Shown here in pieces: positions 15,627-52,193 of a DNA stretch of 54,272 nucleotides (its first letter is position 1; every line of letters begins with the position of its first letter). This stretch comes from a virus. Its lineage: Duplodnaviria; Caudoviricetes. The translations under genes were made by a program, and so were the position numbers. The DNA lies in the IMG/VR virus record IMGVR_UViG_3300012663_000565, positions 1 through 54,272 of that record, one strand, 5' to 3'. Below the pieces are notes generated by a model. The model saw only the letters and a list, made by a program, of their open reading frames with translations. It did no database searches and was not told the origin of the DNA.

Positions 15627-15634
15627 TATTTATA
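15627..15634 (-). promoter_or_regulatory. T4-type late promoter
   Basis: Exact TATAAATA on the minus strand, about 28 nt upstream of ATG 15599. Confidence 0.75.
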
Positions 15635-24900: not shown

Positions 24901-27900
24901 GATGGAGCATTATTTGGAGATGCACTTATTGTTACTACTGTACTATTAATAATATTTTTTACAACTTGACGAGATCCTGGAGTTGGATTGATTGCAAATC
25001 CTGTACCAATAATTGACATGCCTTCTTCAATTCCGGTAGTATCATCAAGTACCAAATATCTTGGTATGTTAACAACTACTGCTTGATTAGTAGTTGTTAA
25101 CAACTCAATAGCAAGACCCCCTACAGTAGCACTAACTGAGAATTTAAACGAGCTAAATTGTGGAAGAACATAAAACGTAGTTCCGGCAGCTAATCCGGCA
25201 AATGTTGAACTAAACGAAATTGGCATCCAATCAATAAATGCAACTGTGCTATCTACTGTAATGTCTCTACCGGATGCCTCAGATGCAATAACTGAAGTTA
25301 CTAGCGATGCCCTAACAAATTCGCTTACTATACCTATAGTGCTAACGTCAGTAGAAACTTTAACCAATGGATTAACATATTGTACATTGTAATTAAATGT
25401 ATTATTAGTAATCTCAGGAGTATCTACATCAAATATTGCATGATAAACATTTAACTCATCGGTTATGGACGGAGTGTATGGTAACGTAAATATTTCAGTA
25501 CCTGCACTAACTGTTGCAATATAGTCGTCAAACTCTGTATCAGTTATTGCCCACTTATCAGCAAGGTACGGCAAGCTATCCCAACCCGTTGCAATGTCAA
25601 ATCCCATGCCGTTAACTACTACACCGCCGTAGTCAATACCTGTCATTAACTGTGCTAAATCTTTTCCTAAGTCACCTGTTTTAGGATCATAATAGAATTG
25701 TATTCTGTCAGCAGCATTTAAGATTGACCAATCTTTTAAGTAACTGACTGTTATGATAGCGCCATTAGCAGGTGCAGTCTCAAATGTTATTAGTCCACTA
25801 TAACTAGTATATCCTCTAGTTGTTGATTTTTTAGTTGACAATGCATATGTGTCTCTTAATACATCAACTGTGTAAGACGAAGATCGATCTTTACTTGTAA
25901 CGGTTGCTTTACCAATCCTAACATCTGGTGCCCAAGTTAACGGGAATTGTAATTGAGATCCAGTGCCAACTAACGTATCGGTTTCTTGTAGAGAGGAAAT
26001 AAAATACGTTTGAGTAGTACGATCAAATTTCATCTTAATTAAGTTTGATCGAACAACACCCTTGCCAATAGTTGCAATAATTCTTGCAGTAATACCAACT
26101 GTTCCACCTTCTAATTCAACAGTTGGTGCTGATAGATATCCCTTGCCAGGTGTTAATAAAACTATCCTATTAACAGCTCCGTTAGAAATAAAAGCTCTTG
26201 CAGTAGCACCGGTACCCGAATTGCTAGTAATTCTTACAGTTGGTGCAATCTGATAGCCAGAGCCGCCGTCAATGATAGATAATTCTGTAACTACAAATCC
26301 AACATTATCTAACCAGTGCTTCCATGGGTAAGTATTAATTGTATCAAGGTTAGCCTCAATTTTTCCGTTTGATGTTGTAAAAATAGGTTCTAAACTATTG
26401 TCATTAAACACCGGCGGTAGATCAAAGTCAGTTACTGAAGATGCACTAGTATCTAAACTAGCGTAATTGCTAATGTACTCTCGAACTTTAGTTCTATACG
26501 GTTTTACTTCTGTAATATAAGATTCATAATCAGATAAGTTGTCATTTTTATATGTTACTAACTGATGTAAGTTGCCAACATTGTGGCGAGCTGTTACAAA
26601 ACTGGTTTTAAAGGCCCAATCAATATAAGTTTGTTCTGTAAATGCATAACGAACACTAGTAAAGAATAAGTTTAAAAATTCTTGTCTTAAATTGTCTATT
26701 AAAATATCATGTTTTAATGCATTTAAAATAACACGCAATTCTGTAGCAGCACTATTATCAAAATAAGTACCGTCATATAACGAACCGTCATATCCATAAA
26801 CAGTATCAGAAAATTCATACAATGCTGAACTTAATTGAATTGTGCCGTTTTCTTTTCCAACAACAGTGTAACTTTGTGTCCAGTCAACTGATGGCGAGTT
26901 ATTAGTTTTTTGCAACAATAACCAAGTACTAGAACTAGTTGTTTTAATCTTAACAAGTTTTCCAATATCTGGAGATATGTTGTTTAAATCAGCAAACGTG
27001 TTTACTAAGAAATCCGACGATGTAAACTGATTAAAGCCATCGGCAAACCAATCTACATAATTCCAATATAGAGTAGTATTGTATGCCTGAGAACGAACTC
27101 GTGACCAAAGAGCAGTCGACGGTTCATATGAATAAATGCTCCAAACATTGTTTGATAATTCATCTGATCGAACTAGTATAGAGTAATTTCTTACAGACAA
27201 TATCGTAGTATCATCGTATCCAACACCGGATGAAATTACTTCAACATCGATTATTTTTCCAGACGAATTAATAATTGCTCGTAATTTTGCTCCAGTGCCT
27301 GAGCCAGTAACATCAATGTATGGCGCACGTAAGTAACCGTTTCCTTTTTCGATTAAGTTTATGCCAACAATTCTTCCATCAACAATAACCGGAGTAACTA
27401 CTGGTTTTCTAAAAGTTCCAATACTAGCATATTGTAATTCAACATTGTAATCAATCTCAGTATCATATAACCCAGTTATACTACTAGGGGCAGGATCAAC
27501 TAATTCTAAGTTTGCAATATTTCTAGTATCAACAATTAATTGTTTAATTAATACTGCATTAACTTGTTCAACTACTTGTTTTAATGCTTCAAATCTATTA
27601 ACAAACATACCTTGTCTTGGACGATTTTCAATACCGTATTGTAACTTAACTGGTAATGCAGAGTCAGGCACAACACGATCAGCAATATCTTTTCCGCACA
27701 AACTGTCGATCCACTTTTGTTCTAATGCGGTTGGTATAATAGAATTAATATCAGTTGATATTAGCTTCCATTGACTGTGAATATTCTGTTCAATGTTATC
27801 AGTTATCCAATATTCTACTGACAACACTACGTCTTTATCTTCTAATAGCGGCTGAATATTAACTAAACTAAAACTGTTAGTGCTAGTTAATGCTAGATAT

Positions 27901-30900
27901 TTGTATCCGTATCCTCTTGGATTACCAATAAGACTTGCAACGTCAGATGCCGGTAAATTTCTACCTGGCACTGGCGGAGTTATTTTTTTATTTTTTACCC
28001 AGTAGTAGTATGTCTTTTTCTTAGTCTTACTAATAGAATCGTACTTCTGAGAAACACTGTATGCAGCATTACCATATAAACTTTGTCCGCTAATACCTAA
28101 TGCAAGGCCGGCTTCAGTATCTGCTTGAGCATCCCAATCTGCAGGTAGTAGTGTGCTAGATACCCATTCAAATATATCAATACTTGCGCCCGGAAATAAA
28201 GTGTTCCATGTGCTATTTCTATAAACAACGTCACTGCCATCATTGCTATCAATGAATTTGGCGTTTCTTAAATCCCACCATAACGAGCCAACTTGAGAAC
28301 TTGCCCAAGCTAATCCGTCATCAACTGTTACGTTAGTAGTACCAACTGAATAGGTAGCAGGATCATAAAATGTTTTATATTTAATTTCTTGATCAGCAAT
28401 TCCTGGAATCTTTCCTTGAGCTGAATCAATAATGTCAATATAACTTATTAGCTGATTAGTTAGTTTGTTATATAAAAATGCTTTTTTAATTTTCTTAATG
28501 TCAGGCTTGTTACCTTCAGAGTGTACAAGATTCCAGCTATAAGAGTTTACAGCCTTTTTATATTCGTATATCTTTCCAGATGCAGTCCCGTTATTAACAA
28601 GAGCTGGAGCTCCTACAACTACTGAATTTGCGCCAACACCAAAGCCTGCACCATATTCTGAATTTAAATCTGTAAGATTTTGTAAACTTTCGCTGAAAAC
28701 CCAGTTAACATTATATTGATCATAAATGTCAATTCTTCCAGTATCTGGTCTGCTGTATAAGATGTCAGTAGTAGCATCGTCAAAGGTAGTTGTTCCAGCA
28801 TCAAAGTTAATAACATTACGCACGTCAGCATTAGGACTATAGACAACAAGCGTTTTGCCGCTGTTCATAAACGCTAGCTTACTACCAAAAAATGCAGCAG
28901 TTTCAGGGTTTAAATTAGTAAGAACTTGATGCTGTACATATGAAGTATTAGTTTTTTTGTAAACTGTTACATTGCCCTGATCTAATTTTAATCCGTCATA
29001 TAGTACTGAGCTAGCAGCAATGTATGAGCCGTCACCTGACACAGCAAGTCCTTCAGCAAACCGGACGTCAGTTCCAGGTAGGGTAGTAAACTGTACAAAA
29101 TTGGTTGGATCCATGGTTGAATTTGCATAGATAAACAATGATCCAGCCTGTGTAGTACCTGGCGCAGAAACTGCTAGTGTTGAACCATTAGTGCTGGCAG
29201 ATAAAGAAAATCCAAATTTATTACCTGGCTGCGTTGTTGCACTAATTCCAGAATCATTTGCATACTTCCAAGAAAGTATCGTAAATTGTAAATTTCCAGC
29301 TGGTTCTATATCAGGAGCAGCATTCAGGGTTAAAGTATTTGAATCATTTACTATTGCTACATATTGCCCGCTTGAAAATCCAAAGCCAACAACTTTCATT
29401 CCAACTTCAATACCAAGAGTATTAGACACCTTGATTACATTGTTGCTACTACCAATAGGATTGTATGTAGCATTAGCCATAACAGTTGTTAAGTAAGATA
29501 GTTGATAAACTCTACCTGCATTATTGTTATAACCAACTGCTCCAACAAATAAATTATTACCACTAAAGACTACGCTTGATCCAAAATTTTCATTTGAACT
29601 TGGCGACGGACTAATAATAGTATCAACTAAAGTAAAAATATTATTTGTGTCTTTCTTATAAATTGACACGACTCCTTGGCCCACAAGGGTTGAATTTTGT
29701 CCTGTTGAATCAACCGGAACGTATAATATTTTTTTCCATTGTGTTACATTAGCTGTAGGAGGTATTATATCTGTAAGAGAATTTATTGTCGGAGTTCTTA
29801 CTTGATAAAATAAAGAATTATGTTTGACAATTTTTCCTAGTGCATACGAAGTTCCTGAAACCCAGTCGCCAACATAGTTGGTACACACATTTTCAGCTAA
29901 TGGAATACCGGTTACTAACCAAGTACCGTCATTAGACATAGCAATTATATCACCTCGATAGTTTGGCTTTGCTACACCAAACGGCTCAATGGTAATAAAT
30001 GGTTTAATTATTGTATCGCGTTCAGTCCAGCGAGAATTAATGCTTGCCCTATCATAAATTTCTATTTCACCTAATCCGTTTGTTATGGCAACAAGAGTGC
30101 TTGTACTATTGAGAACAATACCTCGGCCTCGAGCAGAATCTAATATAGGTGATGTTGAATTAATCTCTGATGCGGTATAAACAGGATTATAGTTCCATGT
30201 TCCCCATTTGTTTGATCCAATATTGTCTGTCCATATGTAATCACCAGGTTTAGTAGATGTTCCAACTACTGAATCTATTACATCAATAGACGCAGCACGT
30301 TGTGATTTCAATGCTAACACAATTATACTGTCCAGGCCAGTAAATGGATCAGCTGGTGGCGTAAAGGTAGTAGGAACAGATACTGTTATAACATTTGAAC
30401 TAATAGATTTAATTTTATAAAATCCGTTAATTGGAGATGCTTGAGTAATACCAATATACGATCCTACTGGCAATGGTATGCTAACTGTTGTAGTTAGCTT
30501 TAACTCTTTAGTTGAAGCAGTGTACTTTACATCAGTAATATCAATAGATAAATCAGTATATCTATAAACATTCCACCCTTTATAATCTGCCCAGTTGTTA
30601 TTATCAAATCCGCACCAGACAGCATCGCCTTCAACAAAAGTAGATATGTCTTGGGTAAGAATATCATCAATTGATGATAATACAAGTTTTACTTGATCAG
30701 GACGAACATAACCAGGAGTTCTTAGATAAGGCTTATAATTTTTTATAATCGGCCATGGAGTATTATTATAACCAATAGGTTTTACATAAATGTCGTTGGC
30801 TGTTTTCCTAATAATAAAATCTGCAATAGTGTTATCAATACGATTAACAAGTTCAAAACCTTGAGGATTGTTTTTAAATTCAGCCTCATCCAAAACAAAT

Positions 30901-33900
30901 TCAATATTTTCAAACGCACCACTAGCGCCGTATTGACCTGTTCGGAACGCCCATTCTTCGTAGAAATCGATGCTGTCTTTGCCATCTGCACTTAATACAT
31001 CAAACAACTTATTAAGAACATTTTGTGTTCCTTTCTCAATAATCATTCCTTGATAAAACTTAAATTCGCTAACATCGTCTTGAATAATATTAGACAAATA
31101 TTGACGCTTTTGATATCCTATCAAATGCTGAGCAACCTGTTGTTGATTGTTATCAAAATTATCACTATCTAAACTGTAAAAATCTGCAAATTGCGTTGCT
31201 TTATAATTCCAATTAGGTATTAGCGATGCAGTTGGTTTTTCCTTAAGTTTTGCCCAGTCGGAATTATTAAACAGTTCTACGCCTGGTAAGAAAGTTTTTG
31301 CACTGTAATAAAATTCTTTATATTTTACAATGTCACCTAAATTATAGTCCTTCCATTGTTCCCATAACTGTATAGTTGCTTGATCAAATATAAATCCAGG
31401 CACATCAAACGAGCCATTCCAATTTGTACTAACATATCCGGCAACTTTTATACGTTCTTGTCTATATCCACTTTCTGCATTATAGATAGTGTCGTTAAAC
31501 ATTGTAGTATTATTAATAATAATAACTTGTTCTTTTTGTACAAGATAAAAACTTGCTCCAAAAATTCCGTCTGGACCTGTAGGAATATAACTTACTGAGT
31601 TAGTGTCTCTAAAGGAATTTAAAAAGTTAGGAGTAAGTGGAGTACCATCAACTTTAAAAATATCATAGCCGTTAAACGGATTTCGAATGTCATCAGCAAC
31701 TGCTAAAGGTGCAACAAATGTTAGTTTAGTAGCGGCAGGGCTTAATGAGATCACAGAACTACCTACTGTACTAAGACCCTCAAGTTTAACAAACTTTTCA
31801 AAATCAAACGTAGCACTTGGTGCTATTGCAGTAATAGCACTATAGTAGTCACCGTTGTATCGAACAATATCACCGAACAAGAACGATTGGTTAGGCAACC
31901 AATCAGCCCACTTATCCTCACCAGTAGACCAATTTTGTGTAGTCCAGAATAAGAATTCTTTAACACTAGTGTCCCAATTATACATTGCACCTTGAGTTGT
32001 GCTGTATTCGTCAAATACAAAACCTAAGTCTTTTAGATACTCTGCGTATCCTAAAATAAAATCTACAACTTCTTGTATAGAAGAAAACTTTGTTCCATAC
32101 GGAACAGTAATAGTAGTGTCTCTATCCCACGCCTTTCTTAAAATGCCATCAGCTCCGCCAACAACTGGTAAACGTGATAATTTTTCATAATACTGAGGAT
32201 TAAATTCTGTAGTAGTAGTGTGTAGCGATCTAGTTCTATAAAAGCTATTTTCAAACCTAACAATTTTACCTGCGGCATATCTAGAGTTTGTTGACCAAAT
32301 CATAAAAGATTCTGAGATGCCACCAACGTTTATAGTAATACCAGACTGAGTCCAGCCGTAGTATTTAAAGTACGGGGTTGTCCTGCTGTAACCCTTAACT
32401 TCAAATCCATCTGGTAATTTAGTAATAATAATACCGCTATACGTGATCTTCTTGACGGGGCTTGAACTGTTAAGAATAATGTCATAATCTTCTTGCGGTA
32501 CAAACACACTTCCTTGACTTAGTGGAGTTTTACTATCTAATAATAAATTAAATTTTTCTTTGCTAGTAAACCCACCAATGCGATGTGTTAATTTAGCCGA
32601 CATGTTTTCCAACTCGTACTTGTAAGCAGTATAAGATTTTAAATTGTCACTTAAAATGTAGTCAACAATGTAATTAATAATACCAGAAGTAAGTGTTTTA
32701 GTAGTGCTAGAATATATGTTTGGTAAAATAATGTCAGACGGTGTTATCCTTAATCCAGTATCTTTGTAGATTAGTTGTCCTGCAAGATTACGAATAACTT
32801 GCGATCTGTCTAATAATGTACCAAATGTTTTAGCAGGATGCATTAGCATCGATGCTAATAATACGCTAAAAGGATAATAACTGCTTCTTCTCCATGCTGC
32901 TTCTACAGGGCTTACATCGCCAAACACAAAATCACCTGTAGCAGATTGCGTAATAATACCAATAGCCAATCCTGATAAAATAGGACTTACTAGGTTGCCG
33001 TCACTGTCTGCAGGAATATGATCCATGATAAAAGGACGGGCAAACTTAGCATTTATTGTTGCTGGTTTATTTGGCTCACGGATAGTACCTGTCGCAATGT
33101 CTTGCCACATTACTTTATTTTCACTAGTAAATGGGGCGGCGCCATACACTGTAGTCCACCAGGCTGGTTCAATTGTAAACCCTAGCATCTCCCAAGGATG
33201 AGAATGCGGGCGGTCAGTATCAAACATCCAACGATAGACTCCCCTCCAATAACCAGGAACTTCTCGACCATCCGGGGAGGCAAGTCCGTTATAATTAAAT
33301 GTTAAAGAATTTGATCTATCATAGCTTAACGGTTTAGTAAAATCACGATCAATTAAACTAGTCCACTTGTAAAAACTAGGCGAAAGTACCTCATTAAATT
33401 CAGTAAGGCTATATTGAGTTGTTCTGTTATATCCGGGAATGATATCCAATATATCAAAAATATCACTATCGTATTGTACTTTAATATTATTAAAAATTCG
33501 CTTTTCTAACTCTAAAATAATATCATCTCGATAATCACCGTATGCTAAAATTTGACTGCCATCGTGTCCTTGTATCATCATACGAGGTGTTACTAGGGCA
33601 GTATCTTCGTAAATCATAGGTTCGTATTTTGGCCAAATTCCTAACTTAGTAGGAGTTGGCGGTACGAAGGATCCGTTTGTATTTTCATATTCATAGATCG
33701 TTAATACATCGTCATTTTGCAAGGTTGCAGAAATAACTACAAATCCCTGTGTATCAAAAGAATAATCTTTTCCAAATAATAATTGTGTTTCATTTAAGTA
33801 AACTAACACCGCAGTGGTTGATAGGTTATCTAAACTAAAAACACTAGTCAACGGATAAGTTTTAATTCGATAGTCAACAACAGTATAACTATTTTTTAAG

Positions 33901-36605
33901 TTAGCCGCATACGGCACCATGTCACTAAAATAGTATGGGCTAGTAACCGGCGTATCTTTATTAAGAGTTTGTAAGATTAAATCTACATATGTCACTGGAT
34001 CTGTATCAATTCCTAATCTATCAGCAACTGAAATAAAATTTTTCTTAAATCTACCGTAAGCATCTCTAGATTCTTCAATTGCCCTTACAACATTATTTTC
34101 AGATGTAATATGATACAAACTTAAACTTGCAGGGCCGCTGTGTTGAACAAACCGTGTACCAAATGGTGTAACATTTCCTAAGTCTCGAATGTTTTCATGA
34201 TCTGGATCATATGTTTGATCCGTAATAGTTTGTGTATTACTAAATTCTTCAGATACTTCAAACGACTCAGGTATATTATCAATAATTGACCCTACGTGAT
34301 CAATTACTTCGCCGAGTGTAAAATATTCAATATTACCATTTAACGGATTATTTTGTAGATTAATAGGAATTTCATAATAACCAGTAGCATTAACCGGTTG
34401 TGATGCAAATGCTTTTATTGTTAGTACATCAGTTAGTGCAATGTCAGTATTAAGAACAACTGTTTTATAAACTGCACCTGTAGCAATTGTCCAACTAGAT
34501 TCATCTAGTCGAATTCCATTAACGTAGACTTTAACAACTAAATCATTTAAATTATTAACATCGTCAAATATATCAATATTAAAATTATTTGTTAAATTAG
34601 AATTCTTATAAATTCTAATTGCAGGTTGGTATGTAGTTACTCGACACTGTTGCCAGCCGTTAATATACGAGTTGTCTAATGTGTTAAGCAAGTACCCAAC
34701 ATCAATTTTTTGTGTTAAGGTAGTAGAAACTGATTTGTATATAAAACTATCTGTTGCAAGATTAAAATCAAAAACAATATCACCAATATTAGCAATATTC
34801 TTGTAGGATAGTGCAAAACCTAAATTCTTATCAACAGTTCCAGTCCCTACTTTATACGAAAATATTTTTGTACCAGTGAATGTCGATCCGTCATATACTG
34901 AAGTATTTCCAAAACTATTTCCGTTGCTATCAAACACATCAAATAGTGGAGGTTGATTTAACGTTGTTTTCTGTTGGGCAATATTCCATTCTGTACCAGT
35001 GTACCAGTACATTAGCCCTTGATTCTTAGCACCCTTCTTTACTAATGCTACTTGACCCAACACAGGATCAGATACTGGTTCTAAGTGAATTTGTCTAAAG
35101 CCGTTTAGATTTAAAAACTCAACTCTATAAATTCTATTCTTAACAAGAATGTCATTATCTGCCGTGAATAAAATACGCTGGCCTTGAGCTACTGGAATAT
35201 TATCAATATTATATCCTAATGATCCTTCAATTGTTGAAAATACATCTTTTGTAAAAGTGTCTATTAAATCAATATCATCGACTGCGGTTACTCCAAAATT
35301 AAATAATTTTAGATTTTTATTAAATTCAATAATTGGTCGAACTGCTCTAGCAGATTGATCTAACGATACTGTTTTATTATTGTACCTGGCGCTTGATTCG
35401 ATAACATCTTTATGGAACCAACGATTGTATCTGCTCCACGGATTGTAGTCGTTACTACCTCGATTTATAACAATATAATCGGGTGTTCCTGCAAATGAAC
35501 TAGCATCTTCAAACGGCATACTGTCAAACGGGGTTGTGTCAAATAGCACAGATTCGTCAGTAGTGTATGGACTAATTAACTGTAAAACTTTTTCGTTAAT
35601 TAGTTGAATAGAATCTCCAACACCTTCAACATAATATAGTCCTGAAGAATAAATTTCAGGAGTTACATTACCAATAAACTGAACTTTCATGCCGTTGCTT
35701 AATCTAGTACCGTCTGGTAGCACGTATGTCTTTTTGCCTAGTAAATCAGTTTCTACATTAATGCTAGTGTTATCTTCTATAGATGCAATTTCAAAAACAC
35801 CACCTAAATCAACGTCAGTTGTACTAACATAAAATAATAAATCTGGAGAAGTATACGGCACTGTAAAGGTAATTGTACCAGTTTCTACAGAATTTAAATT
35901 AGAAGAAACGGTACTAGCATATACAACACCGGTTGTGTATACATCACTATTTCCAGAAGATCGACCAGTTTTAATAGTGAATGGGTTGCCGGGGCTGTTA
36001 ACTTCAAACTTGTATGTTTGGCCGCGATATAACTTAATTGTAGGATTTTGTACTGGGCCGCCTGGAGAGAATATGTAAGTGTTATTATTACGCTCTGGTT
36101 GGATGTTTATCTGGTAAGTGCTTTCAACCTTGGTTTGTTGGCCGTAAATTTTAATCGAGTCAGGGCCCGACGGAATCCAATAGTAATTTTGAAAATTTAC
36201 AATTTTATCCCAGTTAATGTGCGGATCCCATGAATAAAATTCTTGTAAATTTAAACGGCTATGGTTGGATGTATTTGCCCCAAATACACCTAATTGATTA
36301 ATATAATCAATATAATCTTTAAAGTATGTAGTGTTGCCAATTTCATCTTTAATAACAATACCCGGCTCTAACTGATAATGCTGACGCACCTTGTCGGATG
36401 CGGATATAAACAGATCATCACCAGTTGTTGCTTTAGCATTTTCGCGGCCAATGTACCCGTTAATTTTTTTAACAGTACCCGGTTGTGTTAATTGATCAAG
36501 AGTTGCTGTAAGGAACTTTTTGTTTGCATCTGTTTGATAAAATTTAGGTAGGAACTCAGACGATGCTCCTGTTTTATTGCCGGTTGGGTTAACACTATCA
36601 GCCAT
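21945..36605 (-). CDS. Giant (4886 aa) baseplate wedge-like structural protein (gp7 position)
   Basis: A single 14.7-kb ORF coupled to the gp6-like gene. It contains FG-GAP-like propeller repeats, W....Y..G.IV.Y....Y repeats and GSGY..APTV repeats. Confidence 0.7.
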   Translation of the reverse strand: MADSVNPTGNKTGASSEFLPKFYQTDANKKFLTATLDQLTQPGTVKKINGYIGRENAKATTGDDLFISASDKVRQHYQLEPGIVIKDEIGNTTYFKDYIDYINQLGVFGANTSNHSRLNLQEFYSWDPHINWDKIVNFQNYYWIPSGPDSIKIYGQQTKVESTYQINIQPERNNNTYIFSPGGPVQNPTIKLYRGQTYKFEVNSPGNPFTIKTGRSSGNSDVYTTGVVYASTVSSNLNSVETGTITFTVPYTSPDLLFYVSTTDVDLGGVFEIASIEDNTSINVETDLLGKKTYVLPDGTRLSNGMKVQFIGNVTPEIYSSGLYYVEGVGDSIQLINEKVLQLISPYTTDESVLFDTTPFDSMPFEDASSFAGTPDYIVINRGSNDYNPWSRYNRWFHKDVIESSARYNNKTVSLDQSARAVRPIIEFNKNLKLFNFGVTAVDDIDLIDTFTKDVFSTIEGSLGYNIDNIPVAQGQRILFTADNDILVKNRIYRVEFLNLNGFRQIHLEPVSDPVLGQVALVKKGAKNQGLMYWYTGTEWNIAQQKTTLNQPPLFDVFDSNGNSFGNTSVYDGSTFTGTKIFSYKVGTGTVDKNLGFALSYKNIANIGDIVFDFNLATDSFIYKSVSTTLTQKIDVGYLLNTLDNSYINGWQQCRVTTYQPAIRIYKNSNLTNNFNIDIFDDVNNLNDLVVKVYVNGIRLDESSWTIATGAVYKTVVLNTDIALTDVLTIKAFASQPVNATGYYEIPINLQNNPLNGNIEYFTLGEVIDHVGSIIDNIPESFEVSEEFSNTQTITDQTYDPDHENIRDLGNVTPFGTRFVQHSGPASLSLYHITSENNVVRAIEESRDAYGRFKKNFISVADRLGIDTDPVTYVDLILQTLNKDTPVTSPYYFSDMVPYAANLKNSYTVVDYRIKTYPLTSVFSLDNLSTTAVLVYLNETQLLFGKDYSFDTQGFVVISATLQNDDVLTIYEYENTNGSFVPPTPTKLGIWPKYEPMIYEDTALVTPRMMIQGHDGSQILAYGDYRDDIILELEKRIFNNIKVQYDSDIFDILDIIPGYNRTTQYSLTEFNEVLSPSFYKWTSLIDRDFTKPLSYDRSNSLTFNYNGLASPDGREVPGYWRGVYRWMFDTDRPHSHPWEMLGFTIEPAWWTTVYGAAPFTSENKVMWQDIATGTIREPNKPATINAKFARPFIMDHIPADSDGNLVSPILSGLAIGIITQSATGDFVFGDVSPVEAAWRRSSYYPFSVLLASMLMHPAKTFGTLLDRSQVIRNLAGQLIYKDTGLRITPSDIILPNIYSSTTKTLTSGIINYIVDYILSDNLKSYTAYKYELENMSAKLTHRIGGFTSKEKFNLLLDSKTPLSQGSVFVPQEDYDIILNSSSPVKKITYSGIIITKLPDGFEVKGYSRTTPYFKYYGWTQSGITINVGGISESFMIWSTNSRYAAGKIVRFENSFYRTRSLHTTTTEFNPQYYEKLSRLPVVGGADGILRKAWDRDTTITVPYGTKFSSIQEVVDFILGYAEYLKDLGFVFDEYSTTQGAMYNWDTSVKEFLFWTTQNWSTGEDKWADWLPNQSFLFGDIVRYNGDYYSAITAIAPSATFDFEKFVKLEGLSTVGSSVISLSPAATKLTFVAPLAVADDIRNPFNGYDIFKVDGTPLTPNFLNSFRDTNSVSYIPTGPDGIFGASFYLVQKEQVIIINNTTMFNDTIYNAESGYRQERIKVAGYVSTNWNGSFDVPGFIFDQATIQLWEQWKDYNLGDIVKYKEFYYSAKTFLPGVELFNNSDWAKLKEKPTASLIPNWNYKATQFADFYSLDSDNFDNNQQQVAQHLIGYQKRQYLSNIIQDDVSEFKFYQGMIIEKGTQNVLNKLFDVLSADGKDSIDFYEEWAFRTGQYGASGAFENIEFVLDEAEFKNNPQGFELVNRIDNTIADFIIRKTANDIYVKPIGYNNTPWPIIKNYKPYLRTPGYVRPDQVKLVLSSIDDILTQDISTFVEGDAVWCGFDNNNWADYKGWNVYRYTDLSIDITDVKYTASTKELKLTTTVSIPLPVGSYIGITQASPINGFYKIKSISSNVITVSVPTTFTPPADPFTGLDSIIVLALKSQRAASIDVIDSVVGTSTKPGDYIWTDNIGSNKWGTWNYNPVYTASEINSTSPILDSARGRGIVLNSTSTLVAITNGLGEIEIYDRASINSRWTERDTIIKPFITIEPFGVAKPNYRGDIIAMSNDGTWLVTGIPLAENVCTNYVGDWVSGTSYALGKIVKHNSLFYQVRTPTINSLTDIIPPTANVTQWKKILYVPVDSTGQNSTLVGQGVVSIYKKDTNNIFTLVDTIISPSPSSNENFGSSVVFSGNNLFVGAVGYNNNAGRVYQLSYLTTVMANATYNPIGSSNNVIKVSNTLGIEVGMKVVGFGFSSGQYVAIVNDSNTLTLNAAPDIEPAGNLQFTILSWKYANDSGISATTQPGNKFGFSLSASTNGSTLAVSAPGTTQAGSLFIYANSTMDPTNFVQFTTLPGTDVRFAEGLAVSGDGSYIAASSVLYDGLKLDQGNVTVYKKTNTSYVQHQVLTNLNPETAAFFGSKLAFMNSGKTLVVYSPNADVRNVINFDAGTTTFDDATTDILYSRPDTGRIDIYDQYNVNWVFSESLQNLTDLNSEYGAGFGVGANSVVVGAPALVNNGTASGKIYEYKKAVNSYSWNLVHSEGNKPDIKKIKKAFLYNKLTNQLISYIDIIDSAQGKIPGIADQEIKYKTFYDPATYSVGTTNVTVDDGLAWASSQVGSLWWDLRNAKFIDSNDGSDVVYRNSTWNTLFPGASIDIFEWVSSTLLPADWDAQADTEAGLALGISGQSLYGNAAYSVSQKYDSISKTKKKTYYYWVKNKKITPPVPGRNLPASDVASLIGNPRGYGYKYLALTSTNSFSLVNIQPLLEDKDVVLSVEYWITDNIEQNIHSQWKLISTDINSIIPTALEQKWIDSLCGKDIADRVVPDSALPVKLQYGIENRPRQGMFVNRFEALKQVVEQVNAVLIKQLIVDTRNIANLELVDPAPSSITGLYDTEIDYNVELQYASIGTFRKPVVTPVIVDGRIVGINLIEKGNGYLRAPYIDVTGSGTGAKLRAIINSSGKIIDVEVISSGVGYDDTTILSVRNYSILVRSDELSNNVWSIYSYEPSTALWSRVRSQAYNTTLYWNYVDWFADGFNQFTSSDFLVNTFADLNNISPDIGKLVKIKTTSSSTWLLLQKTNNSPSVDWTQSYTVVGKENGTIQLSSALYEFSDTVYGYDGSLYDGTYFDNSAATELRVILNALKHDILIDNLRQEFLNLFFTSVRYAFTEQTYIDWAFKTSFVTARHNVGNLHQLVTYKNDNLSDYESYITEVKPYRTKVREYISNYASLDTSASSVTDFDLPPVFNDNSLEPIFTTSNGKIEANLDTINTYPWKHWLDNVGFVVTELSIIDGGSGYQIAPTVRITSNSGTGATARAFISNGAVNRIVLLTPGKGYLSAPTVELEGGTVGITARIIATIGKGVVRSNLIKMKFDRTTQTYFISSLQETDTLVGTGSQLQFPLTWAPDVRIGKATVTSKDRSSSYTVDVLRDTYALSTKKSTTRGYTSYSGLITFETAPANGAIITVSYLKDWSILNAADRIQFYYDPKTGDLGKDLAQLMTGIDYGGVVVNGMGFDIATGWDSLPYLADKWAITDTEFDDYIATVSAGTEIFTLPYTPSITDELNVYHAIFDVDTPEITNNTFNYNVQYVNPLVKVSTDVSTIGIVSEFVRASLVTSVIASEASGRDITVDSTVAFIDWMPISFSSTFAGLAAGTTFYVLPQFSSFKFSVSATVGGLAIELLTTTNQAVVVNIPRYLVLDDTTGIEEGMSIIGTGFAINPTPGSRQVVKNIINSTVVTISASPNNAPSGNLYFTKNVNLLSVLHVTSTAGLKVGDVLSITPNIPEAIQLNTTITEIIDSTRVQLNQLIIKDIVPNLTIVSPTLPTATFVRTLKLLADYTIPKSGTMTLALPLHPNNELTVSSLLSPVRVDSDILLPIVTDNEVDIGPLGITVNDGDQIIIRKSTSDGSIKPSELDYDTALSGGTLNTFAGAFTTASGIAPDEIIIDGDDFVSPTTSPAPEEVVPGQIVDAVAIKVFDKASTGSAAIRVDSYTADGTNREFKITQTPNSVWAVVVKTTEGYRDPTTQLLSSVSSIKTEKFSAIEDGDYSIDYPAGIIKFDVAPAEGLLISIFSIGFSGSNILDLDYFIGDGTTYEFITKAPWVDNVTSLVYVDGIPVSPQLFKTDNTYDAPNKIGLRFIIPPFNAEIINYIIVSGTQQTFAITKTQKIAPTGTDTYDLIYDVGDALPAESNMLVRVDQTFLKGPNNSYFKIAGTKVNYTIDSTKFLPYTVSINNIVVLAAGKLLELGKDYTVDLSGITIKINDLVRKANLNQQLVISIATGNEYQYIPRTNTTPPRIVFAQEYDDPTYIEVTSSYKHDILDVQRTAITVTSNLSITPDTTEYYNYFGVSGGYILLDRTVIDDNYVWVLKNGTLLTPSVDFKLNADKKSITLALSPDQTDEFTFITYGSNVLSAGVSYMQFKDILNRTHFKRLSANKQTRLATPLHYLDTTITLVDATNFDIPNPSKNRPGAIEIRGERIEYFAINGNVLSQLRRGTLGTGTPVTHPADAYVVDIGVSQTIPYTDSFITDKITIDNSSGIFVNSNITPTASPIDPWFTEFNYSLPLGTYSNTKQYLINDVVRANNYYYVNTVQYTIEIDPVTNLPIPSSITDPATSDKWMQIGTIPVNYSQADDIEVFVGGTRLKKKPFKTYSPLVHPESPEGDEVHEAEFSVNGTSTIRLTNPVAPGTIVTIVKRTGLDWDGKTTPNILIDDGKIANFLKATPGIWHTNIQKS

Positions 36606-46223: not shown

Positions 46224-47078
46224 ATGACATTAATACCAAAGACACCCAAGGTTAATTACCTCAACAACAAAGATATGTTGCTCGAAATACATCGGAGCAA
46301 AAGCTCATACTGTAGTTTTACTGATCCAAAGTATCATCAATATGACATTATTTTGCCAAGTTTAGACAAAATAAACATACGTACAGTAGCAGAAGCTAAA
46401 AGGAATCAGGCTAAAAGAATAGGAGATTTGGATTATTCTACTCGTAAAAAAGCCGGTGAAAAAGTCAAGCAAGCCGACTGCGAAGTGGACTATAAGAAGA
46501 TTGCCAAGACAGATTTAGTCTTTAGAATCATGACGTTTGATCATATTCCGCTTAACGGGACTCGCAAAAAGAATCCTAAAAGCCTAGCAGATCATAGAGA
46601 TAAAGTTAACTTTCCACCTTTTCAACATTTTAAATTTAACGATGCTGATGAATTAATTTGTGTGGGCAAGAGTCACTGGAAGGGTGATTTGATTAAAGGT
46701 AAATTTGACAAAGATGCTGGCCAAATTACTCCAACATTAGCAAGAATGATGTTAAAATTATGCGAGAGGTATGCTACTCGCGGCAACGTTCGCGGCTACA
46801 CATATAATGACGAAATGAAAGGGCAAGCTATACTACAGTTAACACAAATTGGTTTGCAATTTGATGAAAGTAAATCGGATAATCCGTTTGCTTATTTTAC
46901 TGCGGCAGTTACAAATAGTTTTGTCCGTGTAATTAACCTCGAAAAACGCAATCAAAATATTCGAGATGACATTTTAGAAATGAATGGTATGAATCCGAGT
47001 TATAGTCGAACTGGTCAGGGCGAGCATGAAGCTGCACTGAAACGCCACGCGGCAGAAAGTGAGGGGCCTAGTGAGTAA
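46224..47078 (+). CDS. Late-transcription sigma factor, T4 gp55-like
   Basis: NYLNNKDML, GYTYNDEM, FDESKSDNPFAYFT; canonical 55-47-46 gene order. Confidence 0.85.
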   Translation: MTLIPKTPKVNYLNNKDMLLEIHRSKSSYCSFTDPKYHQYDIILPSLDKINIRTVAEAKRNQAKRIGDLDYSTRKKAGEKVKQADCEVDYKKIAKTDLVFRIMTFDHIPLNGTRKKNPKSLADHRDKVNFPPFQHFKFNDADELICVGKSHWKGDLIKGKFDKDAGQITPTLARMMLKLCERYATRGNVRGYTYNDEMKGQAILQLTQIGLQFDESKSDNPFAYFTAAVTNSFVRVINLEKRNQNIRDDILEMNGMNPSYSRTGQGEHEAALKRHAAESEGPSE

Positions 47079-48084
47079 TTTATTTAAAAAAGTAGCCTGT
47101 TTTACAGACATACACTTTGGTTTAAAATCAAATAGTAGTGTACATAATCAAGACTGCGAAGAATTTGTAGACTGGTACATTGCTAAAGCCAAGGAGGAAG
47201 GGTGTGACACTGGAATTTTTATGGGCGATTGGCATCACAATCGCAACAGTCTTAATATTACTACTATGGACTATAGCCTTAGAGCCCTTGAGAAACTGGG
47301 ACAGGCTTTCGATAAGTTTTATTTCTTTCCTGGTAATCATGATCTTTACTACAAAGATAAGCGGGACATCCACAGCGTTGAATTCGGAAAGTATATTCCT
47401 GGCATCACTGTGGTACACGAGCCCACTACTATTGGTGACGTTACTTTATGTCCTTGGCTCGTTGGGGACGAATGGCGATCAATAGGTAAGAATGGTGGCA
47501 AGTATATCTTTGGACACTTCGAGTTACCTAGCTTCTTTATGAACGCCATGGTGCAAATGCCGGATCACGGTGAAATCCAACTCGATAGCTTTCAAAATTA
47601 TGAGTTAGGATTTAGCGGACACTTTCATAAACGTCAGCAACGTCAAAATATGATTTATATTGGCAATGCTTTTCCACACAACTATGCAGATGCATGGGAT
47701 GACGAACGTGGCATGATGATTTTAGAGTGGGACGGCACACCAGAATATCATTCTTGGCCTGGGCAACCTACATTCCGCACAGTTACACTTAGCCGATTAA
47801 TCGACGAAGCAGATACGTTGATATTGCCTAAGCAACACTTACGTGTTACACTAGATATTGATATTAGCTACGAAGAAGCTAGTTTTATTAAAGAAAAATT
47901 CATTTCAGATTATAACATTCGAGAGTTAACGTTAATTGCCGAAAAGAAAGAAACTGAAATTAATACTAATATTGATATCCAGTCGTTCGAGTCAGTTGAT
48001 CAGATTGTGTCCAGTCAACTTGTAAACATCGACTCCGACACGTATAATAAGAACACGTTACTAGCAATTTATAATAGCCTATGA
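47071..48084 (+). CDS. Recombination nuclease, gp47/Mre11/SbcD-like
   Basis: Metallophosphoesterase motifs DIHFG, GDWHH, GNHD, GH and SGHFH. GTG 47071 with a GAGG RBS is preferred as start. Confidence 0.92.
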   Translation: MSNLFKKVACFTDIHFGLKSNSSVHNQDCEEFVDWYIAKAKEEGCDTGIFMGDWHHNRNSLNITTMDYSLRALEKLGQAFDKFYFFPGNHDLYYKDKRDIHSVEFGKYIPGITVVHEPTTIGDVTLCPWLVGDEWRSIGKNGGKYIFGHFELPSFFMNAMVQMPDHGEIQLDSFQNYELGFSGHFHKRQQRQNMIYIGNAFPHNYADAWDDERGMMILEWDGTPEYHSWPGQPTFRTVTLSRLIDEADTLILPKQHLRVTLDIDISYEEASFIKEKFISDYNIRELTLIAEKKETEINTNIDIQSFESVDQIVSSQLVNIDSDTYNKNTLLAIYNSL

Positions 48085-49856
48085 TCAAGATAAAAGATTT
48101 AACAGTAAAAAACTTCATGAGTGTAGGTAATCAAACTCAGGCTGTTGATTTTAGTAAAGAAAACTTAACACTTGTGCTGGGAGAAAACTTAGATCAAGGT
48201 GGAGATGACAGCGGATCACGAAACGGAACTGGCAAAACAACAATTGTCAATGCATTAAGTTTTGCACTATTCGGCAATGCTTTAACAAATATTAAAAAAG
48301 ATAACCTAATTAACAAAATTAACAATAAGAATATGTTAGTTACGTTGTCTTTTGATAAAGACGGACAAAGTTATCGCATTGAACGTGGGCGTAAACCTAC
48401 ATTAATGAAGTTCTATGTCAACGACGAAGAGCAAACTACTGAAGAAACAGATGATGCTCAAGGCGACATGCGTGAAACACAAAAGGACTTAGACGATTTG
48501 TTGGGCATGAGTCATGATATGTTTAAACATATTGTTGCACTTAACACTTATACAGAACCGTTTCTAAGTATGCGGGCGGCAGATCAGCGAGTTATTATTG
48601 AACAGTTGCTGGGCATTACACTACTTTCTGAAAAAGCAGACACATTAAAAGAACTTATTAGACAAACTAAAGATAATATTTTGCAAGAAAGTGCAAATAT
48701 TGAAGCAACTAAGAAAAGCAATGAAAAAATTCAATTAAGTATTGACAGTTTACTCACTAGACAAACTGCTTGGAACGTCCAACAAGAAACCGATTTAGAA
48801 AAAATTGGACGGGCTATTATCGAATTAGAAAGTGTAGATATTGAAGCAGAGATTACTGCTCATGCTGAACTTAAAAAATATTTAGATTATACTGCTAAAA
48901 TTAAGAGTCTTAACAAAGAAAAAGCTACATTAGAAAGTGCTACTGCACAAGCAGAACGTAGTGTAAAAAAATATACATCTGAGTTAGCAGCATTAGATGG
49001 AAAGAAATGTCATGCATGTGAGCAAGACTTGCATGATCATAAGCACGAAGAGTTGTTTACTAAAGCTACATCTCATTTAGCAGAAGCACAAAAGTATTTG
49101 GACAAAGTTACTGCTGATCTTAAAAAGATTGTTGATGAGATCGGTACCGATGACGCTCCAGTTCGACCAGATACTTATTACGACACTGTTGAACAAGCAC
49201 TTAAACATCAGAATAATCTTAAGACGTTAGAAACTAATTTAACAATTAAAGCAGGTGAAACAGATCCGTATCAAGAACAAATTGACGAACTGCTCAATAC
49301 TGCCATGCAAGATGTTACGTGGGATACTGTTAACGAGCTTAATACACTAAAAGAACATCAAGAGTTCTTGCTAAAATTGTTGACTTCCAAGGATTCGTTT
49401 ATCCGTAAAAAGATCATAGATCAAAACCTAGCATATTTGAACAATCGCTTGACTTATTACCTTGATAAGATGGGATTGCCTCATACAGTATTGTTCCAGA
49501 ACGATTTAACTGTTGAGATCACCCAGCTAGGGCAAGATTTAGACTTTGATAATCTAAGTCGAGGTGAGCGGAATAGACTTATCCTTGGTTTGTCATGGGC
49601 ATTCCGTGATGTATGGGAAAGTTTGTATCAAAGTATTAACTTATTGTTTGTTGACGAGCTTATTGATAACGGATTAGATGCATCTGGAGTTGAGGGCGCA
49701 CTGGCTGTTCTTAAAAAGATGGGTCGTGAACGCAAAAAGAACATATTCTTGATTAGCCACAAGGACGAATTAATCGGTCGTGTTAACAACGTACTGCGAG
49801 TTATTAAAGAAAACGGCTTCACTTCATATGCAAACGATTTAGAAGTTAATGAATAA
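48081..49856 (+). CDS. Recombination ATPase, gp46/Rad50/SbcC-like
   Basis: Walker A NGTGKT, coiled coil with CHAC zinc hook, LSRGE signature, Walker B LFVDE, ISH. Confidence 0.93.
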   Translation: MIKIKDLTVKNFMSVGNQTQAVDFSKENLTLVLGENLDQGGDDSGSRNGTGKTTIVNALSFALFGNALTNIKKDNLINKINNKNMLVTLSFDKDGQSYRIERGRKPTLMKFYVNDEEQTTEETDDAQGDMRETQKDLDDLLGMSHDMFKHIVALNTYTEPFLSMRAADQRVIIEQLLGITLLSEKADTLKELIRQTKDNILQESANIEATKKSNEKIQLSIDSLLTRQTAWNVQQETDLEKIGRAIIELESVDIEAEITAHAELKKYLDYTAKIKSLNKEKATLESATAQAERSVKKYTSELAALDGKKCHACEQDLHDHKHEELFTKATSHLAEAQKYLDKVTADLKKIVDEIGTDDAPVRPDTYYDTVEQALKHQNNLKTLETNLTIKAGETDPYQEQIDELLNTAMQDVTWDTVNELNTLKEHQEFLLKLLTSKDSFIRKKIIDQNLAYLNNRLTYYLDKMGLPHTVLFQNDLTVEITQLGQDLDFDNLSRGERNRLILGLSWAFRDVWESLYQSINLLFVDELIDNGLDASGVEGALAVLKKMGRERKKNIFLISHKDELIGRVNNVLRVIKENGFTSYANDLEVNE

Positions 49857-50123: not shown

Positions 50124-50549
50124 ATGTCATGGACTTATCAAAATGAAATCGTAGAAACGCTTCCCGAGGATTGTGTTGGTTTCGTGTACTTGATAACAAA
50201 TGACATCTCTGGCAGAAAGTATATAGGCAAAAAATTAGCCAAGTTCGCTAAAACATCTTACAAGGTGGTTAAGCTCAAGAACGGAACTAAGAAAAAGAAG
50301 AAGATTCGTAGCAAGATTGACAGCGATTGGAGAGATTATTATGGCTCCAGCGATGCGTTGACAAAAGACATAGAAACACTAGGCAAAGAAAACTTCAGTA
50401 GAGAAATCCTATATTACTGCACATCCAAGGCGCAATGCTCTTACATCGAGGCCAGAGAACAATTCACAAACAAAGTTCTAGAAAGCAATGACTGGTATAA
50501 CGGACACATAGCTGTTCGTGTACATGGTTCACATATATTAAAATCATAG
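50124..50549 (+). CDS. GIY-YIG family nuclease (single domain)
   Basis: GFVYLITN..SGRKYIGKK, YYGSS, FSREIL, conserved E (YIEARE) and WYN; Lys-rich insertion. Confidence 0.8.
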   Translation: MSWTYQNEIVETLPEDCVGFVYLITNDISGRKYIGKKLAKFAKTSYKVVKLKNGTKKKKKIRSKIDSDWRDYYGSSDALTKDIETLGKENFSREILYYCTSKAQCSYIEAREQFTNKVLESNDWYNGHIAVRVHGSHILKS

Positions 50550-50559
50550 GCTCACTAGC

Positions 50560-51025
50560 GGTATTAAGCAAGCGTCAGCTAACATCAGACGCCCTAAAAC
50601 CTGGATCACGGATCGCAGGGAAGGAAAACTCTCGCCGCCAAGAGTACTCAGCAACTATCCTTTACAGGACGTAGATCGCAACTGCCGCGGTTTTGCTGTT
50701 TGAAAATAATTTAATAGAGCCCAATGAGGGAAGAAATATCCCAGGTTTATATATTATGTTAGCGTATATTATATAAACTGCCGTTGTTTCCGCAAGGACA
50801 AGAACGTAGCTAGAGGTACCGGACAACCGCCTTAGTAATGCTATAACGCTAGTGACTGTAAGAACTCAGATAATGTGTTTTACATTTTTTGCCCGTGCAA
50901 ACGGGCAATTGTGACTGACGAATCTAGATAATATCTTAAGTGCTTCGCACTTGACTATAGTTCATAATTAAAAAGAATAAATGCTTGAGCGATAGCGATA
51001 AGCAGAAGAACGTAAGTTCTTCTTA
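50560..51025 (+). ncRNA. Candidate large structured non-coding RNA, family not recognised
   Basis: About 500 nt with no ORF and more than 10 stems, three of them closed by GNRA loops on the + strand. It includes a nested 3-way junction. Confidence 0.55.
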
Positions 51026-51034
51026 AGTAAGTAG

Positions 51035-51041
51035 ATAAATA
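51035..51041 (+). promoter_or_regulatory. Late promoter-like box
   Basis: ATAAATA 22 nt upstream of ATG 51063. Confidence 0.6.
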
Positions 51042-51062: not shown

Positions 51063-52193
51063 ATGAAGATTTACGACATTATTTCCGAGCCTAACACTAT
51101 TGAATCTTTTTTAGAAGACTTAGATAACACTCTGATTAAGAAAGGGCTTATTACTGAAGCAACAGCGGGTGCTACCCAACCTGTTCCCGGTAGTCCCGCT
51201 GGATTAGTTATTCCAGCAGGTGCTAGAACTGCTACACCTACTCCAGCAGCTCCAAATCCTAATGCACCTTCTCAGAGTTCTGCAAATACTAAACGTGCTA
51301 GGATTGCCGCTAAGAAAGCTAGCCGTACAGCTAGTAAAGTATCAGCATCAAAAATGGGAACAGCATTAAAAGGTAAAATTGCAAAAGAACTTACATTGCT
51401 TGATATTCACGGAGATAAAGTAACTAGATTTATTCCAAAAACTGCATTTAAGTTTATGGTAGTAATCAAGTGGTTAGGCATGTTGCCTTTCTTTTTTGAA
51501 TACTGGCAAGATAAAACTGCAATCAGTAGTCTAGCATCTAAAAACGAGATATCAGCAGAAGATGCAAGTGCCGCACATCGTATAGCGGTTACAGAATTAG
51601 TGACCAAGATTGTTGTCAGCGCCGGTTTTGCTAATTTATTAAAATGGTTATTACGTTTACGCTATTTGAGATATGCAGCAATAGCAGGTGGCGCTGTTGC
51701 ATCAGTAGCTACATTAGGATTGTTCGGCGGCCCAGCGGTTGTTGCTATTCTAGCAACTGAGGCTGCTGCAATTTGGTTACAAACTTTCCTACAATCTGAA
51801 AAAGGAAAAGAAATAGTTGCATATTGTGTTGTTTATGCTATAGATCCTGCACTAACTTGGGTATGGAATAAAGGCCCGGGGGCATGGAGTGAAGCGTTAA
51901 AAGCTCCAGAACTATCTGCTGCCGGAGCAAACAAAGTCATAGCCGCTACAAAAGCAGATGGAAAAGCACCTGCAAAAGTTGCGGCTGCTACTGGTGCAAA
52001 TCAAGCTGCTAACCCTGCAATTGCTGCAACGTCAACTGAGCCAGAAGATCCTACACTAGCGGCTACTAAAGCAACAATTGGAGATATTCTTAAGCCTGGC
52101 GAAAAGAAATGGGGTACTGGTAATGCAGGATTTCCAACAGCTGGCGGTGGAAACGTTGATCCGTCGGAATATAAGAGCAAAGCGCCACGTTAA
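51063..52193 (+). CDS. Hypothetical late protein with hydrophobic segments (possible virion-internal or membrane protein)
   Basis: 376 aa with a late box upstream. Hydrophobic stretches such as AAIAGGAVASVATLGLFGGPAVVAILA; Ala/Pro-rich termini. Confidence 0.65.
   Translation: MKIYDIISEPNTIESFLEDLDNTLIKKGLITEATAGATQPVPGSPAGLVIPAGARTATPTPAAPNPNAPSQSSANTKRARIAAKKASRTASKVSASKMGTALKGKIAKELTLLDIHGDKVTRFIPKTAFKFMVVIKWLGMLPFFFEYWQDKTAISSLASKNEISAEDASAAHRIAVTELVTKIVVSAGFANLLKWLLRLRYLRYAAIAGGAVASVATLGLFGGPAVVAILATEAAAIWLQTFLQSEKGKEIVAYCVVYAIDPALTWVWNKGPGAWSEALKAPELSAAGANKVIAATKADGKAPAKVAAATGANQAANPAIAATSTEPEDPTLAATKATIGDILKPGEKKWGTGNAGFPTAGGGNVDPSEYKSKAPR

Follow-up and report, generated by a model that had tools for sequence, protein, structure and literature searches.

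The question raised by the locus described here is what fills the 513-nt gap that separates the stop codon of a GIY-YIG nuclease gene (position 50549) from the start of the next open reading frame (ORF, position 51063) in the virus record IMGVR_UViG_3300012663_000565. The whole stretch analysed, 54,272 nt in length and hereafter called the window, is a 54-kb piece from an uncultured virus, with a completeness of 15% as estimated in the record; its gene content is of the T4 type and its source is an uncultured T4-like lake phage. In the original prediction, which was made from the letters alone, the gap was singled out as the only large one in a tightly packed window, and it is indeed the largest gap between ORFs of at least 80 aa. 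No ORF of 30 aa or more was found in it on the + strand. According to the present analysis, positions 50553–51023 of the + strand (about 470 nt, with predicted ends) almost certainly represent a full-length Polynucleobacter-1 RNA, identity and structure being taken together. The best explanation overall is that this RNA is pseudoknot-rich, free-standing and acts in trans, to which we give slightly less than an even chance. All the RNA features listed below lie on the + strand.

The identity of the 5′ part was established with cmscan, which assigned positions 50567–50701 to the Rfam family RF01718 (Polynucleobacter-1) with 109.1 bits (E 8.2e-23) against a gathering cut-off of 37 bits, the match being not truncated and covering positions 1–141 of the 141-position model. 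This motif, consisting of helices P1–P6, forms the 5′ domain of the RNA, while the remaining ~320 nt of the gap gave no Rfam family even at E values up to 10. RF01718 was also over its cut-off in all of the 17 further loci tested, with no other family over threshold. The Rfam family therefore covers only the 5′ third of an RNA of about 470 nt, and the 3′ two thirds are outside Rfam. The RNA had been proposed to be an undescribed one that would lose its novelty with an Rfam hit; this is what happened to the 5′ 135 nt, and the 3′ two thirds belong to no Rfam family.

The window RNA is thus a typical member of a known orphan family, with which it agrees over the whole model, in its helices, in the freshwater habitat and in having relatives in Burkholderiales. 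It differs from the family as described in Rfam in that the model ends at P4 whereas the window RNA runs ~320 nt further, through three more domains, and carries a pair of identical 7-nt words (the twin words, see below), and in that the 5′ strand of pseudoknot PK1 (50557–50561) lies outside the model. A literature search found Polynucleobacter-1 named only in PMC2864571 (Weinberg et al. 2010), DUF6641, the family of a gene neighboring the bacterial copies, not mentioned, and nothing on this RNA under large phage RNAs. In the table of PMC2864571 the motif is entered as a likely RNA from Burkholderiales and freshwater or estuary samples and as 'cis-reg: y', a label which appears there as the authors' tentative guess and does not fit the window RNA. 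A group I intron with a GIY-YIG homing endonuclease was also considered and rejected, as no intron family was matched even at E values up to 10 and the flanks are not exons, being a complete ORF with a stop codon on one side and a new ORF with its own promoter on the other.

The existence of a large structured + strand RNA filling the gap, which had been predicted by eye, was confirmed by covariation analysis of 75 pairs in 18 helices, including four pseudoknots, in 46 phage sequences. Paired states were found in 96.7% of the tested cells compared with 85.3% after shuffling, compensatory changes occurred in 42 of the 75 pairs, and none of 500 shuffles reached any of the five covariation measures used; controls with the partner strand slid were 32–46% paired. 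The RF01718 consensus helices (P1, P2, P3 and the P4 junction with P5 and P6) were 96–100% paired, with both-side changes in 15 of 30 pairs, and in the bacterial clade by itself 28 of 90 predicted pairs were compensatory. The + strand folds at −133.5 kcal/mol with a z-score of −3.57, equalled by none of 100 shuffles, as opposed to a z-score of −1.94 for the − strand, for which 6 of 100 shuffles were as good. Among the tested pairs there are 127 G.U cells versus 32 A.C or C.A cells, an excess which favours an RNA made from the + strand. The raised G+C content noticed earlier is also real, amounting to 0.52 over 50567–50701 and 0.48 over 50500–50699 compared with 0.32–0.41 in the upstream flank.

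It can hardly be maintained, in view of these data, that the gap holds no RNA at all and is either a DNA-level element, such as protein-binding repeats or cruciforms, or a hidden small protein gene. Identical direct repeats are typical of DNA sites such as iterons, and two short ORFs of 36 and 54 aa on the − strand do overlap the gap. Yet a DNA element agrees poorly with the G.U excess, with compensatory pseudoknots and with a match to a full Rfam covariance model, and the ORFs found inside the region differ in strand and place among the loci.

The RNA is laid out in a 5′ domain (P1–P6, PK0 and PK1), a central domain (P7–P12, PK2 and P10) and a 3′ domain. In the 5′ domain, P1 is the GCGTC/GACGC stem, P2 the CCTGGATC/GATCGCAGG stem, P3 the ACTCT/AGAGT stem, and P4 (CAGCAA/TTGCTG) closes a three-way junction with P5 and P6. 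PK1 (50557–50639) joins 50557–50561 to the P3 loop at 50635–50639, with A-U (27) replaced by G-C (15) at one pair and G-C (43) by A-U (3) at another; its outermost pair is mostly unpaired, and the bacterial counterparts of the two strands are CTACYG and CRGTAG. PK0 (50567–50580) joins 50567–50569 to the P1 loop at 50578–50580, 99% of its cells being paired and one pair being changed on both sides; in bacteria it is formed by GAG and CTC.

The central domain contains the long hairpin P8 (50746–50777), which corresponds to a stem first read at 50744–50779 and has compensatory changes in 10 of its 11 pairs. Its loop TTAGCGT (50759–50765) pairs with AACGCTA (50846–50852) to form PK2 (50759–50852), which is 99.7% paired and compensatory in four of seven pairs, for example C-G (29) with U-A (17). 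In the P10 pseudoknot (50783–50827), GTTG at 50783–50786 pairs with CAAC (50824–50827) in the P12 loop, with U-A 26/C-G 20 and G-C 30/A-U 14 at the changing pairs; its bacterial analogue, GTTTY versus RAAAC, is consistent in 27 of 27 sequences and shows a double change in one of them, L082, as judged by eye. P11 (50807–50810 with 50840–50843, hence 50807–50843), three of whose four pairs are compensatory, encloses P12, the CGG-ACAA-CCG hairpin, made up of 50814–50816 with 50830–50832 and of 50820–50821 with 50828–50829; in P12a, A-U (26) goes with U-A (20). An inserted hairpin, TCC-GCAA-GGA (50787–50800), occurs in the window alone among the 46 aligned sequences.

Two homologous modules make up the first part of the 3′ domain, each with a terminal box that includes a 7-nt word, and three hairpins come after them. 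RNAalifold gave a poor consensus for the 3′ third, and the 3′ hairpins were read by eye. Twin box A (50862–50874) is GAACTC followed by AGATAAT (50868–50874), and twin box B (50920–50932) is GAATCT followed by the same AGATAAT (50926–50932). The hairpin between the boxes (50889–50908) has arms that stay complementary across variants, namely TTTGCCC/GGGCAAA, TTCGCCC/GGGCGAA and TTAGCCC/GGGCTAA in phages and GAGCC/GGCTC in bacteria. After box B there is a variable hairpin (50938–50952), mostly with a UUCG loop, whose arms differ in relatives and yet stay complementary. It is followed by a hairpin of the form GCTTG..(CG-ATAG-CG)..TAAGC with a conserved GAG/AA internal loop (50983–51003), the three outer pairs of which show double changes in 10, 14 and 14 sequences, and by the terminal hairpin AGAAGAAC-GTAA-GTTCTTCT (51004–51023), which presumably marks the 3′ end and has compensatory arms such as GTGAAC/GTTCAC, ACGAAC/GTTCGT and GTGAGC/GCTCAC. 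Eleven stems had been listed in the original prediction: ten of them are kept in relatives, the TCC-GCAA-GGA stem (50789–50798) being confined to the insertion of the window, and the list missed the four pseudoknots, helix P11, the hairpin at 50983–51003 and the twin words.

The 7-nt word of the 3′ domain comes in about 29 forms, roughly 13 of them from phages and 16 from bacterial copies, and its two occurrences change together. Among 76 distinct phage sequences, the parser scored 66 as having words identical at all seven positions; six of the remaining ten were parser errors (five proved to be 7/7 by eye and one was cut by a contig end) and four differ by one letter. The 90 distinct bacterial-type sequences include 70 identical at 7/7, 18 at 6/7 and two at 5/7. 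Measured at the first letter, the two words have a mutual information of 0.95 bit, the best of the other RNA columns reaching 0.29. The triplets that precede them, CTC in one case and TCT in the other, have kept their difference, which speaks against simple gene conversion.

A partner of the words was sought in several ways. An exact or G.U-tolerant complement of the word was looked for in each RNA and locus and was found in no conserved place; mutual information of its first two letters with all RNA columns revealed no partner, and no column of the 1070 nt upstream tracks the word. In the 54-kb window, a search allowing up to three mismatches gave 34 matches against 28 expected, and a second pattern gave 22 against 22 expected; neither the word nor its complement is enriched there, and the words themselves are variable, 7 nt long, internal and duplicated. 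The tRNA-Phe beside one bacterial island and the repeats of that island do not contain the word. Readings of the words as codons, anticodon mimics, translational bypass sites, CsrA sites or GNRA loops were rejected, since each fits only some of the word types by eye.

Relatives of the RNA were collected with a motif-derived pattern search, which gave 60 viral contigs, and with a second scan plus nhmmer, which added 31 phage loci to make 91 related phage loci in all. The whole gap is conserved in 47 non-identical stretches, with conservation dropping at the start codon of the next gene; a set of 50,697 phage records searched by blastn gave no match to the gap. In bacterial genomes there were 13 true matches, including Limnohabitans sp. 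Bal53 (two copies), a metagenome-assembled genome (MAG) of Polynucleobacter meluiroseus and Comamonadaceae MAGs. Two of the 13 are phage-like contigs binned in a MAG; among the other 11, two are truncated, two are cut by contig ends and the rest have a diverged 3′ part as well. A metagenome scan added 63 further full-length copies of the bacterial type. The ~320 nt outside Rfam are as conserved as the motif itself, both in the phage loci and in betaproteobacterial islands. The RNA exceeds the RF01718 cut-off in only two of 151 genomes of the bacterial family concerned, as expected of a mobile element.

Some of these relatives deserve a separate mention. In L253 and L298 the nuclease is kept at 71–73% identity and the RNA is strongly diverged (nhmmer scores of 33 and 23 bits versus 144–393 elsewhere), with RF01718 still matched (86 and 91 bits) and the twin words, of the GTCAAG type, retained. 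In L064 and L073 similarity to the full-length RNA ends after ~220–300 nt and the upstream genes are intact; the Limnohabitans genome with a truncated copy also has a full one (L072). An attachment site inside the RNA gene, which these truncated copies had suggested, was dropped as only two of 109 metagenome loci were found truncated with upstream DNA present.

Whether the RNA belongs to the gene behind it could be judged from promoter positions. The T4-type box ATAAATA occurs eight times in the window, at 15627, 17184, 21914, 40091, 46165 and 53268 on the − strand and at 51035 and 53251 on the + strand, and all eight copies sit 20–44 nt upstream of ORF starts, which identifies it as the late promoter box of this phage. 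The copy at 51035–51041 is the late promoter box of the gene following the RNA. Such a box is found right after the RNA in 35 of 42 phage loci compared with one of 59 control windows, and none was found upstream of the RNA in 60 phage loci. With a late box lying between it and a next gene that lacks conservation, the RNA is very unlikely to be a leader.

In bacterial-type loci (for instance L068, L076 and L082) an invariant TAAATA box precedes the RNA by 19–54 nt in 25 of 25 distinct upstream regions, with no good −35 element by eye in these regions, from which we infer that the island copy may be switched on by the late transcription of a T4-like phage. The bacterial RNA sits between a divergent DUF6641 gene and a gene for a 190-aa tyrosine recombinase. 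The DUF6641 gene is divergent and upstream in 46 loci, 44 loci having at least 700 nt upstream. The recombinase consists of the catalytic domain only; it is similar to Xer catalytic domains and, at a weak level, to tyrosine-type DNA invertases of ~200 aa (NCBIfam). Where the downstream DNA is long enough, it comes after the RNA in 36 of 44 loci. From the end of the aligned bacterial RNA to the start of the next gene on its strand the median distance is 452 nt. In one island, L314 (G001:C1:55000-72000), the RNA module is located ~15 kb from a tRNA-Phe gene; the stretch between them contains an AspBHI/Mrr-type restriction enzyme, a C5 cytosine methylase and a DUF6339 gene, and the palindrome GTCCTTTAAAAGGAC followed by T's, of which L314 has at least five copies, looks like a local terminator.

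These observations bear on the possibility that the RNA is a cis element, either a leader of the downstream gene or a 3′ untranslated control region of the nuclease mRNA. The table of PMC2864571, with its 'cis-reg: y' entry, speaks for it, as do some relatives whose RNA begins inside the nuclease ORF or immediately behind it. It is a poor prospect all the same, given a next gene that is not conserved and a late promoter that separates it from the RNA, both in the window and in 35 of 42 loci; the bacterial RNA, moreover, has its own TAAATA box, faces away from DUF6641 and has its next same-strand gene far off, and ~470 nt with four pseudoknots far exceed known leaders.

The gene in front of the RNA (50124–50549, + strand) encodes a 141-aa GIY-YIG nuclease, of which residues 3–129 match Pfam PF19835 (SegE_GIY-YIG, E 8e-33), and no PDB chain was matched by phmmer below E 0.1. 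It was described earlier as having a Lys-rich stretch and no separate DNA-binding domain, and this proved correct: only the catalytic domain was found, and the Lys-rich stretch is conserved among homologues. A homologue, 57–87% identical, lies upstream of the RNA in 87 of the 88 phage loci with upstream DNA and is directly adjacent in 84, which speaks for the RNA as a guide or scaffold that would supply the targeting of this enzyme. The phage loci are, on the other hand, syntenic relatives sharing the order gp47, gp46, nuclease, RNA, and adjacency is therefore expected by descent. In one of them (L032:4127-4642) the nuclease slot is taken by a 171-aa PD-(D/E)xK endonuclease (PF24608, E 1e-25), a non-orthologous replacement with the RNA kept. 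An extra ORF intervenes between the nuclease gene and the RNA in L029, L055 and L278, that of L055 coding for a 272-aa classical homing endonuclease (GIY-YIG with NUMOD3) and the other two being unassigned. No GIY-YIG gene was detected by tblastn in 74 bacterial-type loci (442 kb), and variation in the word is mirrored by none of the columns of the nuclease gene (mutual information at most 0.36 against an entropy of 0.92). The ribonucleoprotein partnership with the GIY-YIG protein put forward in the original prediction is thus not supported, and a guide or scaffold function for this nuclease is very unlikely.

The constant presence of a small DNA-cutting or DNA-joining gene nearby, GIY-YIG or PD-(D/E)xK in phages and a tyrosine recombinase in islands, is nevertheless striking. 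A bold reading is that the RNA programmes such compact enzymes, which have no DNA-binding domains (GIY-YIG, PD-(D/E)xK and tyrosine recombinase alike), by bridging: the two identical words would keep together a pair of copies of one short DNA sequence, for a recombination or cleavage involving identical sites. IscB with its HEARO omega RNA and the IS110 bridge RNA are comparable in having a structured RNA beside a compact DNA enzyme and short variable words in a conserved scaffold. They differ in that the neighbor enzyme of the window RNA family varies (GIY-YIG, PD-(D/E)xK, tyrosine recombinase, or none adjacent) and in that the two words do not address a target and a donor but are identical, measure only 7 nt and gave no target. 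Programming by bridging is regarded as a long shot.

The location beside the recombination and replication genes gp46 and gp47 also brings to mind an RNA-primed replication origin, whose transcript would be a pre-primer of the ColE1 RNA II type or of the T4 ori R-loop type, and the bacterial islands could copy the origin of a helper phage. ColE1 RNA II resembles the window RNA in size and in its many hairpins, and the transcripts of T4 ori(uvsY) and ori(34) are, like it and RNA II, several hundred nt long, hairpin-rich and placed beside replication or recombination genes. None of these transcripts is known to have conserved pseudoknots or twin words. A primer role leaves the four covarying pseudoknots and the twin words of the window RNA unexplained; no origin signature was seen, as GC skew, within the short range of 48–54 kb, does not turn at the site, and neither an AT-rich unwinding element nor an RNase H gene was seen adjoining the RNA in the window. 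We consider an origin improbable.

GOLLD (RF01998) and ROOL (RF03087) resemble the window RNA in being large, intricately folded and carried by phages and mobile elements, and are stated in PMC12286853 to form homo-oligomers. The RNA might serve as an RNA-only architecture that self-assembles in their manner, or as a decoy or sponge for a host or phage protein, in which case the island copy would be a competitor made upon infection. In favour of such a function, box B of the window reads AUCUAGAU, a palindrome, the bacterial copies have a T4-late-like TAAATA box, and one of them lies in an island with AspBHI/Mrr-type and C5 methylase genes. The palindrome is not kept, however, by the bacterial words or by the types GCATAAT and GAATAAT, pairing between two identical words is impossible, and no match to GOLLD or ROOL was obtained either at the gathering threshold or at E values up to 10. 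The window contains no tRNA genes, a further difference from these two RNAs. An architectural or decoy function is considered rather unlikely.

The preferred explanation remains the free-standing RNA acting in trans, and its life cycle can be pictured as follows. In the phage it would be made by read-through or processing of a gp55-gp47-gp46-nuclease transcript, as suggested by the lack of a late box upstream of the RNA and by the overlap of the nuclease ORF with the PK1 strand in some relatives, and it would end at the terminal hairpin, ahead of the late promoter of the next gene. It would then act in trans, the pseudoknotted body holding out the twin words as two identical single-stranded reading heads, which would be occupied either by a partner sequence present in two copies or by a single partner bound twice, the partner being encoded elsewhere in the mobile element. 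The small DNA-cutting or DNA-joining genes in the vicinity may point to a role of the RNA in mobile-element DNA transactions. A trans-acting RNA with two such heads is a tentative best guess, and one that may well prove wrong.

Several points weigh against these conclusions. No partner of the words was found in the RNA, its flanks, the ~1 kb upstream or the 54-kb window, and something other than a shared partner could be keeping the words identical. Single-sequence folds of most phage RNAs, with the exception of one subgroup, show the 3′ half of word A paired with the linker that follows GUGAC, and word A may thus not be fully single-stranded. Helix P9 is invariant, so that covariation cannot test it, and the terminal hairpin lacks a U-run, a consensus scan having made no terminator call. 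In three RNA libraries, each from a different study (X5, X6 and X7), there are contigs that cover the nuclease gene and pieces of 50567–50950; they are assembled contigs of relatives, in which missing cover beyond 50983 proves nothing, and they cannot prove transcription, strand or ends, since such libraries can hold DNA.

As for the surroundings, the genes preceding the nuclease are those of the gp55 late sigma factor (46224–47078, phrog_12791, E 3e-72) and of gp47 and gp46 (47059–49856), with an 87-aa ORF between gp46 and the nuclease gene. No DUF6641 gene was found in the window. The ORF downstream of the RNA (51063–52193, + strand) codes for a 376-aa protein belonging to no Pfam or PHROG family and having no blastp match in the other related loci; it is Ala- and Pro-rich with hydrophobic stretches, and the downstream gene in related loci varies from 189 to 719 aa. 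Among the structural genes there is a single 4886-aa ORF (21945–36605, − strand).

A motif of 141 positions that has been an orphan since 2010 is now seen as the front of an RNA of ~470 nt with four pseudoknots, which is longer still in bacterial relatives and is common to a clade of uncultured T4-like lake phages and to integrative islands of their likely hosts. In its full length, Polynucleobacter-1 joins the large ornate RNAs of bacteria and phages. The identical and yet changing 7-nt words represent a covariation that is not explained by ordinary base pairing inside the RNA, and if the bridge reading were true, their rapid coupled change would set specificity, as in incompatibility groups. 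The record of Limnohabitans sp. Bal53, which is not labelled as a MAG and carries the bacterial form, may provide an experimental handle on this family.

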